Below are positions 2 through 56,028 of a stretch of 64,000 nt of DNA, in pieces. A program made the translations under genes and the position numbers. The DNA is from Dictyostelium discoideum (taxonomy: Eukaryota), in contig CM000151.3 in the NCBI GenBank assembly GCA_000004695.1, positions 1,152,001 to 1,216,000 on the forward strand. The letters are read 5' to 3'. Position 1 is the first letter of the stretch. The number at the start of each line of letters is the position of its first letter. Under the pieces are notes generated by a model. The model did no database searches, was not told where the DNA came from, and saw only the letters and a program-made list of their open reading frames with translations.

Positions 2-6821
<6,820 letters not shown>

Positions 6822-7048: not shown

Positions 7049-8899
7049 TTAATCAATAATTTTTAAAATATTATAAAGATTATGATTTAAACAATAATTT
7101 ATAAATTTAACATTTGAATATTTACAATAAATCTCATTTAGAGAATTTGGAAGTGATAGTATTTTAATTGAAGTTGATTTTGTGTTATTTATATACAATG
7201 TGGTAATAGTTTGTGGAAGTGAATATCTATCTAGAATTAATTCACGTTCTCCTGTGTAGGTTATATGTAATGATTTTAATTTTCTTGGGAAAATTGTGTG
7301 TTTTAGAGTTGAAATATCGAATAAGAAATTAAAAGAAATTTGCTCCACTGTTTCTGGTATTTTGAATAGATTAAATGTTGTGATATAAAAATAATCAAAT
7401 TCAATATTTACAATTGGTGTTGATGATTTTATTGAATATGGTAATCCTTGAAGTTTCTTTTGGTCAGATTTCACAATCACTGATGGTGATAGATTTGTTT
7501 TGAAAATGATTTTAGAGATTGGTAAATTTTGATCAAGATATTGAGGATTTGATTCAGTTATACTAATTACAAAGTTTTCCAAAGTCGATGGTAAATATTT
7601 GGCAATCATACTTCTTTTATATCTTTTAAATAGGTGAAGGGTTTTTAAATTTGGTGGTAATATATTTGGTTTATCAAATGGTTGATCGAATCTAGTACTT
7701 TCTCTAAGATCTAAATAAGTGAGAGATTGAGGTAATAATGATTCTTCATTACCACCTGTTGCTGTTGTTGTTGTTGAATCAATAAAAGGTTGGTCAAAAT
7801 TATGACCAAAAGTAATTGATTCTACATTTGTTGATTTTAAAAATCCAATGGGTCTATTATACATATATCCAAATATTATCTTTTTCAAAGTTGGTGGTAT
7901 TGATGATTCTTTAATTTCACTATTGAAATGGAATGAAAAAGTTATTGATGTTAAAAATGGTGGAAGTGAATCAATATTTTGATTAAATAATCTACCAAAT
8001 CTTAAAGATTTTAGTGATGTTAATTTTGACATATTTGATAACTTTTGATTAAATATACCACCAAAACGAATAGATTCTAAAGAAGATGGTAATTTTCCTA
8101 ATGATTTTAATTTACCATTAAAATATTCACCCAATTCTAAAACTTTTAAATTTTTTAATGATTTATCATCATTTTCTTCATTATCATAATCTTCTTTTTG
8201 TTGTTCTATAGCTCTACCACTACTTTTAAATGATGGTAATAATTTAAAAAATAAAGATGATGATCTTTTTCTTTTTGATTGTTTTGAAAAAATCATTTTA
8301 TTAAATGATGGACCAAGTTTTAAAGTTTCTAAACTTGTTGGTAGTACACCATATTGTATCTTTTGATTATAGGCATGTCCAAATTCTAAAGAAGTTAAAG
8401 ATTTTGGAAGTTGAGATGGCTTTAATGGTTGATTAAAGAAATTACCAAATACTAAAGTCTTTAAATTCACTAAACATTGGAAATCAATTGGCTGATTAAA
8501 CGATTCACCAAGTACAAGTGACGTTAAGGATTCTTTAACTGATAGCATTGGAAGGGTGTAGCATACTATTGGTTGGTCGAATTTCTCGCCAAATTTAATC
8601 GATCGGATAGAAGATACTGATACTGAGGGTAGAGTCTTGTTGTAATCTTTTTCACTCTCTAAAATTTCAATATTTGGTAAAGAGTTTAATAGAGTATTCA
8701 ATAATTGTTGATCTTGTTCTTGATAATCTTTTATTAAAATACTTCTTAAATACTCTTTCATTGGGTATTTAGCTAATGATTCTATGGTAAACTCTTGAGT
8801 ATGATAATTATTATTATATAATCTAACATGATGGAAGATTTGTTTTTTTAAATATTTATTTCTAAAAACTTTAAAAAATAATTTTTCTTGGATTTCCAT
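7049..8899 (-). CDS. FNIP-repeat-containing protein, single exon, 616 aa
   Basis: The ORF is uninterrupted, with ATG at 8899-8897. It has more than 15 tandem ~22-aa repeats carrying the FNIP signature (FGxxFNQPI, FGHNFDQPF, FGGIFNQKL, FGRLFNQNI). This Dictyostelium-expanded repeat family is known as the FNIP repeat. Confidence 0.85.
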   Translation of the reverse strand: MEIQEKLFFKVFRNKYLKKQIFHHVRLYNNNYHTQEFTIESLAKYPMKEYLRSILIKDYQEQDQQLLNTLLNSLPNIEILESEKDYNKTLPSVSVSSIRSIKFGEKFDQPIVCYTLPMLSVKESLTSLVLGESFNQPIDFQCLVNLKTLVFGNFFNQPLKPSQLPKSLTSLEFGHAYNQKIQYGVLPTSLETLKLGPSFNKMIFSKQSKRKRSSSLFFKLLPSFKSSGRAIEQQKEDYDNEENDDKSLKNLKVLELGEYFNGKLKSLGKLPSSLESIRFGGIFNQKLSNMSKLTSLKSLRFGRLFNQNIDSLPPFLTSITFSFHFNSEIKESSIPPTLKKIIFGYMYNRPIGFLKSTNVESITFGHNFDQPFIDSTTTTATGGNEESLLPQSLTYLDLRESTRFDQPFDKPNILPPNLKTLHLFKRYKRSMIAKYLPSTLENFVISITESNPQYLDQNLPISKIIFKTNLSPSVIVKSDQKKLQGLPYSIKSSTPIVNIEFDYFYITTFNLFKIPETVEQISFNFLFDISTLKHTIFPRKLKSLHITYTGERELILDRYSLPQTITTLYINNTKSTSIKILSLPNSLNEIYCKYSNVKFINYCLNHNLYNILKIID

Positions 8900-9209: not shown

Positions 9210-10279
9210 GAAATTTACACCCCACAAAAATTAAATTAAAAAAAAAAAAAAAAATAATAATAATAATTAAAAAATTTATAATAATTTAAATGATTTTTGC
9301 AATTGATTTGAAATTTAAAAAATATCTGGACTGTTTGACCAATCCTCAATAAAAAAAAATAAAAAATAAAAAAATTAAAAAATAAAAAAAAAAAAATAAA
9401 AACTGGTAAATTTTTGGTGTTTTTCAAATCAATTACAAAAATCAATGGAAAGGCACTTTTTTTTTTTTTTTTTTTTTGTTTTTTTTTTTAATTATTTTTT
9501 TATTTTTTCTTTATTTTTTAAACAACATCCAATTACTTTAAATTATAAATTGTTAACCTTTAATTTTTAAAGTATTAAATTTATATTATAAAATTATTAA
9601 ACCATGAAAAATACTAAATAAAAAGAGATACATTTCATATTAGATTAATAGTCATTTGATTACCTAAAATTTTGCAATATAAAACTAATTTAGAATTAGT
9701 ATATTATGAATGTCATGTGGGTATTTAAAAGAAATTTAAACCCAGTAAAAAATAAAAAAAAAAACAAATAAAAAAAATATATTTTTTATAGTTTTTCACA
9801 TATCTGATTTGCTGGTTTAACTTTATTTTTTTATTTTTATTTTTATTTTTATTTTTTTTTTTATTTTTATTTTTATTTTTTTCATTGTGATTGCATTACT
9901 TCTTAACATTACATTTGATAATATTCCTTTTAAATAAAGTTTAAACTTAAAAAAAAAAAAAATAAAAACCCACTCTAACGATATGATAACGCTACTAGAA
10001 TCACAACATTAAGCCCACGCGTTCAACAAAGCTACAAGCCATCCGAAGATAACCTGTAGACAAGGCCAAGATAAAATAAAATACATTTTTGTTCAAAAAA
10101 AAAAAAATAAAAATAAAATAAATATAATTTAAATTTGTTTTTTTTTTTTTTTTTAAACAAAAATGTGATATTTTATTATATTTTTCTTGATTGTATTTGC
10201 TTGCCCTTTTTAAATTAAAAAAAAAACAAAACAAACAATTGGGTGACCATATGGTAAAAATAAATAATATCAATTGATA

Positions 10280-33141: not shown

Positions 33142-33556
33142 TATTATTTAATTTCTTTTATTGCTTAAAAAAAAAAAAAAAAAAATAAATAAATAAAAAA
33201 AAAATAAAAAAATAAAAAAATAAAAAATGATATTGTTGCAAAAATAAAATAAAAAACATATAAAAAAAAAAATAAAAAAAATAAAATATTTTGCAATAAA
33301 AATAAAATTAAAAAAAAAAAAAATAAAAAAAAAAAAATAAAAATAAAAATAAAAAAAAATAAAAAATGACATCAGTTACATGATGCTATTTCAGTTTTTG
33401 TTGTTTTTAATTAAAAAAAAAAAAAAAAAAAAAAAAAATTAGTTAGAGTTTATTCTTTAGTAGTTGCGAAAATATTTAATTTGTTGTTTGGATGAGCGGA
33501 TGGAGTGTTGGCATTTAAGTGGAATTTACAGGTGGACATATTGAAAGTTGTTATTA

Positions 33557-33651
<95 letters not shown>

Positions 33652-33841
33652 TTATTGTCTGTCGTTGCTGTTTATGTTTTTATATTTTTTGGGATATAAT
33701 AATAAAAATAAAAGATTAAAATTAAATCTAATTATGGGAATAAAATAACAAATAAAAAAAATAAAATAAAAATAAACAAAATAAAAGAGGATAGAAAAGA
33801 AGAGAAAAAAAAAAGAACAACATTATCGATCTAGATACATA

Positions 33842-34198
33842 CTATCTTATAATTAACTCGATTAGGTTATTGATATTCCCGATACCAACTAAAGGTGAGG
33901 GGACTCCTTCAACCGGTGGGATTTGTAGCTCTATAATGTGTTGGAGGAATAGGCTAGCTTCATTGCACAAATTGATATGACGTTTCTTCATTGAAGGAGA
34001 TGGGCTAAGGAATGTAAATCCTTTGGTCAAATCTGTCAATGGGTTTGGTAAACGTTCCAAATTTTGGTAGGTCCATGGAATTCCAATGTATTCTTCTTGC
34101 ATTCGTTTTAGATCAGCTAGTTGATCTTCAGCTTCAGCTAGTTGATCTTCAGCTTCACTAGACTGCATTCTACAATTGTTACTTTTATTGTTAAACAA
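33842..34198 (-). CDS. Orphan 118-aa ORF of unusually high G+C with an internal 21-bp tandem duplication; product unknown
   Basis: No stop occurs over 357 nt in a locally about 40 % G+C patch (codons such as CCG, GGG, CGA), and all other frames are closed. The sequence AGCTAGTTGATCTTCAGCTTC x2 gives AEDQLAEAEDQLA. I see no recognisable domain. The ORF-track start is a TTG. It could be a terminal exon, a transposon-derived fragment or a lineage-specific gene. Confidence 0.3.
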   Translation of the reverse strand: MFNNKSNNCRMQSSEAEDQLAEAEDQLADLKRMQEEYIGIPWTYQNLERLPNPLTDLTKGFTFLSPSPSMKKRHINLCNEASLFLQHIIELQIPPVEGVPSPLVGIGNINNLIELIIR

Positions 34199-34245: not shown

Positions 34246-34276
<31 letters not shown>

Positions 34277-35038
34277 ATATACACAATATTTTTATATTTA
34301 TATTATATATATATATATACAAATATACCGGCGTTAGTATACCTGTTTATATATAATATTTATAAAATAATAATAAAAAACTATAAATGGTGGCGGAAGT
34401 GGTGGTTCTATCGTTATTATATTAATATATAATATTTGTAGTAAAAAAAAAAAAACAAAAAAAAAAAATATATAAACAAAAAAAAAAAAAAAAAAAATTT
34501 ATTAAAAAAAAAATAAAAATAAAAATAAAAATAAAAATAAAATTGAAAATAAAAATAAATTAAATTTTTTTTTCACACTAACATCAAAAAAAAAAAAAAA
34601 TCTCAATTGCTTTGGTTCAAATCCATCAAAAAAAAAAAGATTATGTCATATTTTAAATATAAACAAAAAAAAATTTTAAAAAATAAATTGAATATTTTAT
34701 ACAATGTTTGAACTCAATTAAAAATAAAAATAAATATTAAAATAGATCTAAAAAAAAAAAAAAAAAAAAAAAAATAAAGAAAAATAAAAAAATTAAAAAT
34801 TTAAAAAAATTAAAAAAAAAATTGAAATATGTATATTTTCACCCAGTTTGGAATATTCACATTTTGGAGAAGAGATCCTTAAAGGAAATCTCTTTTAATT
34901 TAGCTTTTTTTGGTTTTTAAATTTATGAATAGAAAAAATTATTATTTTCTTTTTTTTTTTTTTTTTTTTTATAAAATACAAAACTCGGAGTTTATTAAAT
35001 CTTGATATAAATTAAAAAAAAAAAAAAAAAAAGAAAAT

Positions 35039-51889: not shown

Positions 51890-54800
51890 ATGAAAACAAT
51901 ATCATTGCTTTTCTTTTTAATTATTTTTTTTTTTATAATAAAGAATATAAAATCAGAACAAACTGAAATTTATAGTTATAATTTCAATAATAATAATAAT
52001 AACATTAATAATATTAATAATAGTAATAATTTAATAAATATTTATTTAAGTTTAAGATTTGGAAATGATTCGTCAGGAAATGGAACTTTATCAAACCCAT
52101 TTCAAACTTTTTGTAAAATAGAATCCGTGTTAAAATCACAAAATAATAATAATTTAACAATAACAGTAAATGTTGGATATGGTCTTTATGATCAATCAAA
52201 TTGTATCTATTTTTCATTAGATAATATTAATTATGATATTATTATAAAATCTTATAATGATAGTAATAATATTGGCAATACTATGGAAAGTATTAGTATT
52301 GGTGGTAGTGATGGTAGTGATGGTAGTAGTAGTAGTAGTGATAATAATGAAATTATAGAAGGAAAAGTTTTAATTCATATTTATTTAAATATTATAAATT
52401 GTAAAATAATATTTAAAGGACCATCAATAACAATATATACGTCTGGATTGGAAGTATATAATAATAGTATAATTGAATTTTCAAATGGAGTTCTAGTGAA
52501 TTTTGGATATGAAGATTTTATACATCAAATGATAAGTTCAAAATTGATTTTAATAAATTCATCAATATCATATAATTCATATGGAGCATTAGTATTGGAT
52601 GATTGTATAATGGATATTTTAGATAATAGTACATTAAATAATATTACATTTAGTTTTAATCCAAATGAACTTTCGGCACCATTCAAGGGTATTAAATTTA
52701 CAAATAGTTTAGCGGTGAATTCAATGTTTGGAATGGGTACTTATGATTTAAATGTGACAAATTCAATTCTTCAAGATTGTGTCATAGAAAGCTCAGGTTT
52801 CACAACAATTAGTAGATCAAGAATTGAACAAACAATATCCAATAATTTAAATTTAATTCAAACAATTGATACCAATTCAATGATAAATTTATATGCAACA
52901 GTTTATACTAAAAGATTTGGTGCAAGACTTTTTATCAATCATACCAAAATAATAACATCACCAACAATAAATGCATTACCAATTTTAGAAGTGTATGCCA
53001 ATTCTTATACAAATATTGCAAATTCATTAATTAGTGGTTATCGTAAAACTACACCAATAATTTTAGCGGAAAATGGTGGTGATAGTTGTACAGTGGAGTT
53101 GAAGCATGTTCATATAGAGAATTGTATCTCTTCATCATTGGCGTCTTTAGCTATGAGTACATTGACGATGTATAATATTAGCTTTAAAAACAATTACCTT
53201 GACTCAATGGTGGTTGCAAATGATGCATCTTCTATAGAGTTAAGTGACACAGTAATAAAATGTGAAGATAACAATCAATTCCTTTCAACTATAACAATGC
53301 CAATTAATCCCAATAGTCCATACAGCCGTCCATTCTCTTCAAGAAGTACAGTGGTATTGAGTAATATGAACTTGCAATGTGTTGGTCCATTTGATTTTCA
53401 AAATTCAACAGTCACTTTTTTAAATATAACAATGTCATCATTATTTCAAAGTGCCTATGTTTCTCTATATTCAAATACTACTTTAGATGTCGCCACAAGT
53501 AGTTTCTCTTCAAGCTCGTATAATGGTGGTCAATTGTTTAGTTTGGGCGATAGTGGTATTTTGTATATTCTATATTGTAACTTTAATCAAAGTGCATCAT
53601 CAATAGTCCAAGGAAATGAAGGCTCAACTGCATTCATTGATTATTCAAATTTTTACAACATAAAATCCGATTACAATGCATTATTTGTTATTGCAAACTC
53701 ATCATTGATCATTTCAAATTGTTACTTTGAAAATATTCAAACCTCTCAAACAAGTTTAATCTCTGGTACCGATTCAATCATTTCCATTGAAAATACCACA
53801 TTGAAACGTATTGGTGTCTATTTAATGGAAACGTCAGATTGTAAAATCTTTATCACTGACGTTACAATGACCAATTGCTTTACATTAATGAATAAGTTAT
53901 TCATTTCTGTACGTGACCATATCACAATTCATTCTTCAAGATTTATAGATAATCATGGATATGGTGGTACACTAATTTCAACATATTCCAGTACAATCAT
54001 CTTTTCTGTTGTTGAATTTAATGGTAATTCATTCACTCCACTACTAAGCTCATTAGGATCAAGTGTTTATCTTACAAATGTCACCTATTACAATAATTCA
54101 GGTTCATTCATTGGTAGTACTAGTGATTTGGTTGAAATTAATCAATTCCAATATGAAAATAATAAAGCACCTTGTGATTATCTATTCAGTTTATCTGGTT
54201 CCTCACCTGTGATCATGAAATCCATAACCATAGAAAATAATTACTTTTCACAATACCTCATTTTCTTTACAGAAGTACATGGTATAGAAATTTCCAATTT
54301 CCAATTCATTAACAATATTGTAGTTTCAGTTAATTCACCATCACCATTCTTTGGAATTGGTTATTTTAATGCAACTTTACAATTTACTTTATGTTCCAAT
54401 ATTTCTATAGATGGTCTTAGAGTAGAAAACAATTCAATAGGGTCTGTGTTTTTATCAAATTATCTTTCTGATTTGGTTTTAAATAATTTATTCATCTCTT
54501 CAAATACATTCTCTGATAAATTTGGTGACTTTTTAAAAAGTTCAAATTCAAGTCTAATAATTGAATCTTCAGATTTTCAAAATAACATTAATAGTATTGA
54601 CTCGGTTTTATTGTCAATCATTGATACTAATACTACAATTGATGATTGTATTTTCTTTGGAAATCAAAATCCAAATGGTATTGGATCGGTATTAAATTTG
54701 GCAATAGAAAACCAACTTTATTACTTTACAATTATCAATTCATTATTTGATTCAAATTTTGCTTTAAATGGTGGAGTATTTGGCTTTACTGGTATTTCAG

Positions 54801-56028
54801 ATTACAATGAAGATGCATTTATTAATCCATTATCTAAATTCAATAATAATACTTTTAAAAACAATTTTGCATCTCAAAAAGGTGGTGTAATCTATACTGA
54901 TTACTTTACATTTTCAAATAATATTTCAAATATTTTAAATTTAAATAATTTTGAAAATAATACTTCATTACTTGGTCCAAATTTTTCATCTGGTATGTAG
55001 TAAATAATTTTATTATTATTATTAAAATTTAAAATATATTATTAACTTTTTTTAAAATTTATTTATTAGAAATGAACTTTAATATTATTGAATTTTCAAA
55101 TTTACCAGATGGTTCAACAGCAATAATTAAATATAGATTTATTGATTATTATAATAATACATTTACACTTTATTCAGATGAATTAAATTTTAAAATTATT
55201 AGAAATTCAAATGATGATCAAATAATTTATGAAAATAATGTAATGGCAGGTCAAGGTAGTTTTTTTTATAATTTTCTTGGAAAAGCTGGTGAAAAGTATA
55301 CTTTTGAATTTAATAATCCATTCAGTTTTAATCAAACCTTTTTCGTTGGCGATTGTTTACCATACCAAATCTATTTAAATTCAAGTGAAACTTGTTCATA
55401 TTGTCAAAATAATTATGCATATAGTCAATCATATGGAAAATGCTATTCATGTGATTCAGAAATAATGACATGTTTAACCTCAACTGTATTTGCAATCGAT
55501 GGTTATTATATAGTGAATAATGATGTTTCAATGGTTGAACAATGTCCATTGGATATGTGTCTTTCTTATAATCTTTGTACATCAAATTCTAGTTTTGGTG
55601 ATTTATGCTTTAGTTGTAAAGATGAATATGGTAATTTAGTTCAAACAAAGAATGGTATAAGATGTTGCTCACATTTTAAACCAATACTTTTAATACCAAT
55701 TTTAGCATTCCATTTACTATTTTCATTAGTATTATCATTAATTAAACACAATAGTTTTAGAATACCAATTAATCAAATTATAATATTCCTTCAAATTAAT
55801 TCAGTAGTATTCTTTTCATATAGTGGTATTTACATTTTACCATTATTCAGAATGTCAGTAGATATGTTAGATGGTTATTGTCTATGGGAAGGTTTAAATT
55901 ATAATTTCAAAAGTTTTTTATCATTTTCAATTATAATTTCATTATTTTTAATTGATTCAACTGATATTACACCTTCAATTTTAATTAAAATTTATAAAAT
56001 AATTTTATCATCATCAACATTTTACAAA

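Follow-up and report, generated by a model that had tools for sequence, protein, structure and literature searches.

The locus analyzed here raises the question whether a G+C-rich open reading frame (ORF) lying between AT-rich spacers of Dictyostelium discoideum is a working gene, a piece of foreign or transposon DNA, or a small, highly expressed gene with biased codon usage, as the preliminary description of this DNA had variously proposed. The ORF lies on the minus strand of a 64,000-nt stretch of chromosome 2 (GenBank assembly GCA_000004695.1, contig CM000151.3, positions 1,152,001 to 1,216,000), hereafter called the window, and corresponds to the gene DDB_G0272026. In this study, DDB_G0272026 was found to be a genuine transcribed single-exon protein-coding gene that is limited to the D. 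discoideum/D. citrinum/D. dimigraforme clade; the suspicion of a real small gene is borne out by frame retention in the orthologues and by a transcript in RNA sequencing (RNA-seq). The reading that we favor, and consider rather probable, is that of a clade-restricted gene encoding a helical protein that undergoes recurrent positive selection on an interaction surface and has a role in proliferating cells.

On the minus strand, the frame stays open over positions 33842–34198, that is for 118 codons when counted from a TTG, in agreement with the 118-codon orphan ORF described at the outset, while the annotated protein has 108 residues and starts at the ATG at 34168 (MQSSEAEDQLAEAEDQLADLKRMQEEYIGIPWTYQNLERLPNPLTDLTKGFTFLSPSPSMKKRHINLCNEASLFLQHIIELQIPPVEGVPSPLVGIGNINNLIELIIR). 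This translation matches at 100% the hypothetical protein DDB_G0272026 of D. discoideum AX4 (XP_645387.1/EAL71447.1; UniProt Q86JM1), and the gene is already annotated, though uncharacterized; a literature search found it unmentioned in the main text of papers. The exact 108-aa protein was found on two contigs only, AX4 chromosome 2 and one of a further assembly. The ten codons between the TTG and the ATG are probably 5′ untranslated region (UTR) and not coding, because a eukaryotic start is expected at an ATG and the annotated protein starts there; the 69 nt preceding the ATG have the same reading in AX4 and in two wild isolates, L009 and L010. About 6.5% stop codons are expected at the composition of the ORF, and 118 open codons have a chance of ~4e-4 per frame. 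This low probability, together with an intact frame in six diverged orthologues, sets the open frame apart from a chance occurrence.

Orthologues were located by synteny, with the Rpc34 gene 3 kb away as the anchor: the 90% cluster of Rpc34 was listed, the 20-kb loci were fetched from the other genomes, most of them assemblies of PRJNA1300491 (described in PMC12745789), and the loci were searched by tblastn and with a profile hidden Markov model. One homologue was found in each of six loci (Table 1), always directly upstream of the orthologue of a 509-aa B-box gene and on the same strand. The conservation in other dictyostelids that the preliminary description proposed to check thus holds for the D. 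discoideum isolates, D. cf. discoideum, D. citrinum and D. dimigraforme, while the loci of D. purpureum, where the side in question lacks synteny, and of D. firmibasis (L004), which is rearranged and has a broken B-box gene, yielded no small-ORF homologue. L009 and L010 are probably CR116C and OT3A, judging from Table 1 of PMC12745789, where both strains are reported to form macrocysts with AX2. A further locus, L001, probably that of AX2-214, shares 99.8% identity with the window across 10.3 kb and encodes the same protein, including its internal duplication (see below). Across the lineages, the orthologous proteins are 32–70% identical to that of AX4, compared with 86–100% for the neighboring proteins, and synteny rescued orthologues that had been missed by sequence searches.

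Apart from L007, the orthologous frames run open for 95–104 codons, bounded by an ATG and a stop that are homologous throughout, and the indels in the coding sequence (CDS) among the orthologues are all in frame. Between AX4 and L009, the sole gap in the CDS is an in-frame one of 21 nt, while each flanking interval carries 20–100 gap columns. In a neutral simulation, the probability that the frame stays open was 0.107, 0.016 and 0.007 at a divergence (K) of 0.15, 0.4 and 0.6, respectively; with such low values and four deeply separated lineages, retention of the frame is very unlikely without selection. Further, 15 columns are invariant in the alignment of the seven sequences (L20, E25, E38, P41, N42, P43, L44, L54, S57, C68, A71, L75, V86, G95 and L102), and residue 40, which precedes the invariant PNPL core, is L in five sequences and F in both D. 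citrinum sequences. These results show that selection keeps the reading frame and about 15 scaffold residues.

The rate of amino-acid replacement outside this scaffold was then quantified as pairwise non-synonymous (dN) and synonymous (dS) divergence by the Nei–Gojobori method. Between AX4 and L009/L010, the proteins encoded by DDB_G0272026 were 69–70% identical, with dN of 0.17–0.18, dS of 0.14–0.15 and dN/dS of 1.1–1.3, whereas four neighboring coding regions in the same comparison showed 97–100% identity, dN of 0–0.013, dS of 0.045–0.19 and dN/dS of 0–0.21. Between L009 and L010, the identity was 85%, and dN, dS and dN/dS were 0.073, 0.023 and 3.2, respectively, corresponding to 16.5 non-synonymous and 1.5 synonymous differences. 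Across Nei–Gojobori, LWL85 and maximum likelihood estimates, dN/dS ranged from 1.1 to 1.7 for AX4 vs. the wild isolates and from 2.6 to 4.4 for L009 vs. L010. Toward the sister species, dN reached 0.58–0.75, with the dS of the neighbors being 0.15–0.66 for those pairs. The surrounding non-coding DNA provided a second yardstick: L009 and L010 differ at 18/303 nucleotides of the CDS vs. 14/1193 in five flanking non-coding intervals (Fisher P = 6e-6), and non-synonymous changes between them accumulate 6 times as fast as changes in the flanking non-coding DNA (P = 3e-6). Directly before the ATG, L009 and L010 are identical at all 197 aligned sites, and AX4 differs from L009 by 5%. These results indicate that, outside the scaffold, amino acids are replaced as fast as or faster than expected from the local neutral rate.

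The replacements are concentrated in the center of the protein. All 15 of the 15 amino-acid differences between L009 and L010 fall within residues 26–84 (own numbering), while the N-terminal 25 and the C-terminal 17 residues are identical. As predicted by a single-sequence AlphaFold model, which is all-helical, the protein would comprise an acidic N-terminal helix, the conserved LPNPL turn, a conserved helix carrying C68, A71 and L75, and a hydrophobic C-terminal helix. A fixed scaffold, a hypervariable center and replacement at or above the neutral rate fit a binding surface under diversifying selection, and for this reason we infer that the protein would be subject to recurrent positive (diversifying) selection on a protein–protein interaction surface, as in conflict or recognition genes. 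Positive selection is the best reading of these data and is not proven, and a role for the protein can be proposed only tentatively.

Transcription was documented in published RNA-seq data (Lamrabet et al., 2020; PMC7078664), in which DDB_G0272026 is listed in Table S2 for B. subtilis vs. control with a log fold change (logFC) of −3.25 and an adjusted P of 1.7e-6, that is, a 9.5-fold fall on Bacillus subtilis (DH1 cells, 4 h in HL5c). The entry was assigned to the B. subtilis sheet from the header, the order of the list, which runs to the Folate sheet, and its length, well beyond that of the other lists of down-regulated genes. The transcript evidence that the preliminary description had asked about thus exists, and the transcript is differential. 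The same down-regulated list also has cdc25, smc1, smc4, ndc80, pcna, plk, aurK, kif10, kif13 and anapc3 (PMC7078664). Because the mRNA is present in growing cells and falls on B. subtilis together with mitotic and S-phase genes, the protein would act in proliferating cells. In addition, DDB_G0272030, whose identifier is only two steps away and which is possibly a close neighbor, is down-regulated on B. subtilis (−3.14) and on folate (−4.13) in the same table. DDB_G0272026 was not found in the searched supplements of a cell-type RNA-seq study (PMC6198379) and of a retinoblastoma/cell-cycle study (PMC3386910), and a look-up of its transcripts in Logan assemblies was uninformative, as a control neighboring gene was likewise found only in the assemblies from NCBI.

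The composition that first drew attention to the ORF was measured next to that of its surroundings. From ATG to stop, the CDS has 39.1% G+C, with 52%, 33% and 32% at the first (GC1), second (GC2) and third (GC3) codon positions, respectively, while the window has 22.5% and the GC3 of 17 long ORFs is 8–19%. Of 808 in-frame 109-codon pieces from the neighboring genes, 1.4% attained the total G+C of 39%, and none (0/808; maximum 0.303) reached the GC3 of 32%; GC3 is a real outlier, and total G+C is high but not unique. The reported G+C of about 40% and un-Dictyostelium-like composition were thereby confirmed, and the rare codons CCG, GGG, CGA and ACC that had been pointed out are present, once each and ACC twice; CTA makes up 6 of the 15 Leu codons. 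Parts of a 1036-codon ORF elsewhere in the window (51890–55000, plus strand) reach a GC3 of ~0.30, more than any other long ORF of the window and near that of the small ORF.

All orthologues share this composition (G+C 35–39%, GC3 27–32%), and in all seven sequences the G+C steps from 5–27% in the flanks to 28–43% exactly at the CDS borders. Substitutions polarized within the D. discoideum clade comprise 24 AT-to-GC vs. 17 GC-to-AT changes, while mutation bias at this composition predicts 69–78% GC-to-AT, from which the observed counts depart (binomial P = 3e-4 to 3e-7). The G+C is thus not decaying, which argues against neutral decay and against an ameliorating foreign gene. These results show that the unusually G+C-rich coding sequence of DDB_G0272026 is maintained, probably by selection.

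A recombination or GC-biased gene-conversion hotspot, or a hypermutable patch, could raise both the G+C and the rate, and so mimic positive selection. The lean of the substitutions towards AT-to-GC (24 vs. 17) would agree with this, as would G+C raised at all three codon positions by way of non-optimal codons, a dS at deep divergence 1.5–4 times that of the neighbors, and a gene order that varies between species just upstream. However, in each of the seven sequences the G+C step falls on the start and stop codons and is not a diffuse tract, divergence within the spacer is lowest in the upstream 200 nt (0/197 for L009 vs. L010; 5% for AX4 vs. L009), and the dS of the ORF in the closest pairs lies within the range of its neighbors. 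To our knowledge, GC-biased conversion is undemonstrated in Dictyostelium. A hotspot of this kind is an improbable explanation of the pattern.

Whether translational codon bias of a highly expressed small gene could account for the G+C, as had also been suggested, was assessed with a codon adaptation index (CAI) whose reference was one D. purpureum actin gene (GC3 0.33) from a fetched locus, not a ribosomal-protein set. In GC3, the ORF (0.32) equals actin (0.33), and C-ending codons for F/Y/H/N/D/C amount to 36–42% vs. 11% in the neighbors, as such a bias would produce. The CAI, however, was 0.29 for AX4 and 0.23–0.31 for the seven sequences, at or below the bottom of the range of the neighbors (0.29–0.48), actin itself scoring 0.87. 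Preferred codons are in fact avoided: TTA, GGT and CCA supply only 29%, 33% and 58% of the Leu, Gly and Pro codons in DDB_G0272026, compared with 63%, 69% and 77% in the neighbors and 93–100% in actin. The RNA-seq significance is modest for the fold change, and no peptide was found in the proteome supplements searched. The codon shift is a general move toward G and C at all codon positions, and a highly expressed, codon-biased gene is hardly credible as its source.

Gene order around the ORF was compared among the fetched loci. Downstream, the order is constant across species (B-box gene, Rpc34, F-box/ankyrin gene and GHMP kinase), while the upstream neighbor of the small ORF changes with the species (regions L005/L006 1–8136, L007 4244–7787, L008 392–7459 and L009 3759–7942): the D. 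discoideum clade has a sedolisin-like peptidase there, D. dimigraforme a ketoacyl-synthase-domain gene, and D. citrinum a gene of ~2700 aa. Farther upstream, the order is different in each species. A synteny breakpoint therefore abuts the small ORF. In D. firmibasis (L004 6130–9650), remnants of the B-box orthologue lie at 6439–6689 and 9549–9650, with a 435-aa FNIP-repeat gene (7499–8806) between the two.

This breakpoint, a composition and codon choice unlike those of the host, and the lack of a homologue in the D. purpureum and D. firmibasis loci examined would all suit an ancient foreign acquisition by the ancestor of D. discoideum, D. citrinum and D. dimigraforme, since domesticated and diverged beyond recognition. 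An exhaustive phmmer search over 1.84 billion representative proteins, however, returned only the protein itself and three weak matches, none of them a transposon protein, and no relative was found in the scanned viral, metagenome and prokaryote contigs. The three weak matches (a ubiquitin-like repeat protein, a translated tandem repeat and a coiled coil) draw their scores from 5–6 repeated stretches and were rejected. No second copy was found in the 64-kb window by tblastn and blastn, or in the 20-kb loci of seven other genomes, and the locus has no terminal repeats and the window no tRNA gene. Moreover, the composition does not decay toward that of the host, and at the rate observed here similarity would be lost beyond the nearest species even for a native gene. 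Ancient acquisition is therefore a quite improbable origin. The horizontal acquisition put forward initially is not supported, as no donor relative was found and the G+C excess is common to all orthologues and is not decaying; nor is the alternative origin as a transposon fragment, given a single copy in the window at the same syntenic position in five lineages, with no transposon protein match and no tRNA gene in the window.

Searches for a known family gave no identity either. No Pfam domain was found in the DDB_G0272026 protein or in any of the seven orthologues, as the preliminary description had anticipated; a single match, to HopW1-1 (E = 0.026), was taken as a chance hit. Sequence and profile searches of the PDB returned noise only, the best match, amoebapore A (E = 0.033), being implausible with a single conserved Cys in the family. 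A ubiquitin-like domain was considered, as the best sub-threshold match, the ubiquitin-like repeat protein P0002, has a GIPWDNQRL that aligns with GIPWTYQNL of the query (GIPxxxQRL core), but the E-value of P0002 is inflated by five repeats and the query has no Pfam ubiquitin match; this lead was dropped, the model being all-helical without a beta-grasp and the GIP residues not being conserved in the orthologues. A structured non-coding RNA was rejected as well: no Rfam family reached the gathering score, weak E-value matches being at chance level, and the folding z-score vs. shuffles was unremarkable on the sense strand (−0.8) and only marginal on the antisense strand (−2.3).

Several points weigh against recurrent positive selection on an interaction surface in proliferating cells. 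Each pairwise estimate is drawn from ~100 codons and has a wide error; measured against the gene's own dS, the ratio does not exceed 1 significantly, the L009–L010 pair by itself (16.5/236 non-synonymous vs. 1.5/67 synonymous) does not reach significance, and a dN/dS near 1 is also expected from relaxed constraint. At deeper divergence, the dS of DDB_G0272026 exceeds that of the neighbors 1.5–4-fold, and either saturation or locally elevated mutation could lie behind this. If the D. discoideum clade is considered by itself, neutrality makes an intact frame only mildly unlikely (P ~0.06–0.1), and in L007 (6970–7461) the stop is lost, with ~65 codons of read-through into T-rich low-complexity DNA giving 163 codons in total. 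The AlphaFold model has low confidence, with a predicted local distance difference test (pLDDT) of 54 and a predicted template modeling score (pTM) of 0.45, and Foldseek of the model vs. the PDB gave generic helical bundles only, at E above 1, with no informative fold. On the side of expression, the support is one RNA-seq table (PMC7078664), the adjusted P in it is weaker than for genes of similar fold change, which hints at low abundance, and the link to the cell cycle is a lead that consists of co-listing among 415 down-regulated genes. The gene was also not found in the searched supplements of a life-cycle proteome (PMC12821622), an absence that says little about a protein of 12 kDa and probably low abundance, one of whose predicted tryptic peptides is MQEEYIGIPWTYQNLER.

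Some of these points would be expected of a transcribed but dispensable ORF that drifts under relaxed constraint and is dying or was never functional: dN/dS of 1.1–1.3, not significantly above 1, between AX4 and the wild isolates, the lost stop in L007, where the orthologue is also unannotated, and the combination of no peptide in the proteome supplements searched, no domain and a low-confidence fold model. In contrast, four lineages that differ by more than 0.4 substitutions per site have each kept an open frame, at a neutral P of ~0.007–0.016 apiece, and the CDS indels are all in frame beside flanks full of indels. Fifteen columns, including the PNPL core, are invariant. The G+C of 35–39% stands beside flanks of 5–27%, with AT-to-GC changes at least as frequent as GC-to-AT, where neutral AT-biased decay predicts otherwise, and the L009–L010 non-synonymous rate is 6 times that of the flanking non-coding DNA. 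Relaxed constraint is thus a fairly unlikely account, and a gene under positive selection on an interaction surface continues to be the reading that we favor.

A separate question is whether the 108-codon ORF is the first exon only of a longer, two-exon gene, as in models of the 2025 assemblies for L009 (6971–7689, 155 aa), L010 (6889–7531, 132 aa) and L008 (6454–7174, 144 aa). These models were reconstructed as single GT..AG introns that remove the last ~14 codons and join an exon of (AAT)n/poly-Asn or poly-Gln, and an island at ~33440–33545 is indeed conserved at the nucleotide level between AX4 and L009. However, AX4 and L009 read the putative second exon in different frames, with a stop in AX4, and that of D. 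dimigraforme (L008) bears no relation to it, while the codons spliced away (GIxNIxNLxxLIxx, followed by a stop at a shared position) show protein-level conservation that includes the invariant G95 and L102, and the AX4 and AX2 annotations retain the 108-aa form. Because the added exon is not conserved in frame and the removed C-terminus is conserved, the two-exon models look like over-predictions or prediction artefacts and the single-exon model of AX4 looks correct; a longer gene is very unlikely. The island between the ORF and the B-box gene has a higher G+C, 12/227 differences between AX4 and L009 and no conserved frame, and is more likely the promoter or 5′ UTR of the B-box gene than the end of a second exon, as which the 2025 assemblies annotate it.

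Upstream of the ATG, the element TATATATAAACAGGTATACTAACGCCGGTATATTTGT is near-identical in AX4, L009, L010 and L007 and recognizable in L008, while the surrounding AT-rich DNA is unalignable. It could be a candidate promoter element or the donor plus branch-like signal (CAG|GTATAC..TACTAAC) of a 5′-UTR intron, the acceptor of which could be the TTGTAG just before the ATG. A second, short GC-rich element, CGATAGAACCACCACTTCCGCCACCA, may mark the region of transcription start.

The internal 21-bp tandem duplication reported initially consists of two exact copies of GAAGCTGAAGATCAACTAGCT, and Tandem Repeats Finder (TRF) outlines a 21-bp period array at 34113–34161 with 2.4 copies and 96% matches. 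It is present only in AX4 and L001, that is in the AX4/AX2 lineage, while the other orthologues have one copy or none; L009 and L010 read MQSSEAVDLLADLKRM with a single copy, leaving a clean 21-nt gap in the pairwise codon alignment. As both copies are identical, the duplication is recent; it arose by in-frame slippage in the AX4/AX2 lineage and adds seven residues to the predicted N-terminal helix (residues 2–26 in the model). The (TAT)n-rich and (TA)n-rich flanks of the ORF were likewise recovered as two microsatellites (Table 1).

Table 1. Features of the DDB_G0272026 locus (positions in the window) and its orthologues in other genomes
Feature	Position	Strand	Remarks
DDB_G0272026 CDS	33842–34168	minus	ATG 34168, TAG 33842–33844; 108 aa; single exon
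Ten extra codons of the TTG-started 118-codon ORF	34169–34198	minus	TTG start in the ORF list
LPNPL motif codons (residues 40–44)	34037–34051	minus	P41, N42, P43 and L44 invariant in the alignment
Central hypervariable part (AX4 residues 33–91)	33896–34072	minus	L009 and L010 translations compared by eye
Two exact 21-bp tandem copies, GAAGCTGAAGATCAACTAGCT	34115–34156	minus	copies at 34136–34156 and 34115–34135; encode EAEDQLA twice
Conserved non-coding element TATATATAAACAGGTATACTAACGCCGGTATATTTGT	34319–34358	minus	150–190 nt upstream of the ATG
Short GC-rich upstream element CGATAGAACCACCACTTCCGCCACCA	34388–34413	minus	conserved in AX4, L009 and L010, partly in L007
(TTA/AAT)35.7 microsatellite	33551–33656		TRF; downstream of the stop; poly-Asn second exon in models of other assemblies
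(TA)42 microsatellite	34246–34327		TRF; upstream spacer
L009 orthologue			wild D. discoideum; 65% identity to AX4 (tblastn)
L010 orthologue			wild D. discoideum; 64% identity to AX4 (tblastn)
L007 orthologue			D. cf. discoideum; 47% identity to AX4 (tblastn)
L005 and L006 orthologues			D. citrinum; 39% identity to AX4 (tblastn)
L008 orthologue			D. dimigraforme; 45% identity to AX4 over 60 aa (tblastn)

DDB_G0272026 belongs to the known class of rapidly evolving orphan genes, to which it is alike in its narrow clade, shortness, lack of a domain, dN/dS near or above 1 and orthologues recognized by synteny only. De novo genes usually resemble the surrounding non-coding DNA, whereas DDB_G0272026 is far more G+C-rich in every lineage. 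What is newly shown for this gene is that it is clade-restricted, transcribed, frame-conserved, compositionally aberrant and extremely fast-evolving.

Two systems of D. discoideum invite comparison. In the same genome set, tgrC1 is reported to have 65–70% amino-acid identity and dN/dS below 1 (PMC12745789), and the divergence of DDB_G0272026, with 69–70% identity for AX4 vs. the wild isolates and 33–44% vs. the sister species, is comparable to or greater than that of tgrB1/tgrC1. The Tgr proteins are large TIG-domain cell-surface proteins of a structurally unstable multigene locus; in contrast, the DDB_G0272026 protein has 108 aa, no signal peptide or membrane segment by eye and no sequence similarity to them, and its gene is single-copy in the window and the fetched loci and fixed beside the same neighbor. 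MatA and MatB, at about 107 aa, are close to it in size, but the mat locus is a 5–6-kb idiomorphic region on chromosome 5, whereas DDB_G0272026 lies on chromosome 2 and was found in every isolate examined. They are also small, helical, lineage-restricted, fast-evolving proteins without a Pfam domain, as described in part in PMC5580921. Neither the PDB profile search nor the fold search gave a homeodomain-like or MatA match, and the likeness is a resemblance in kind only.

For the biology of Dictyostelium, the locus matters in several respects. The tgrB1/tgrC1 and mating-type loci, both treated in PMC12745789, are the chief well-studied cases of very fast protein evolution in Dictyostelium, and here replacement at or above the neutral rate is seen between isolates reported to form macrocysts with AX2, from which their mating compatibility is inferred. 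DDB_G0272026 is also a clean case of coding G+C held far from the mutational equilibrium of the genome without the use of preferred codons. More tentatively, and with a doubtful rather than an even prospect of being right, DDB_G0272026 may encode a helical protein of ~100 aa that is an unrecognized target of positive selection in conflict or recognition in proliferating cells, diverging at least as much as tgrC1. If so, the PNPL core, C68, A71 and L75 would form the fixed scaffold around a hypervariable central surface, selection would also maintain the odd G+C-rich coding sequence, and the conflict could lie in chromosome segregation or centromere drive, strain incompatibility or host–microbe interaction. 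Short (108 aa) and single-copy, DDB_G0272026 would be a compact candidate for a new conflict or recognition factor, easy to knock out in an organism that serves as a genetic model.

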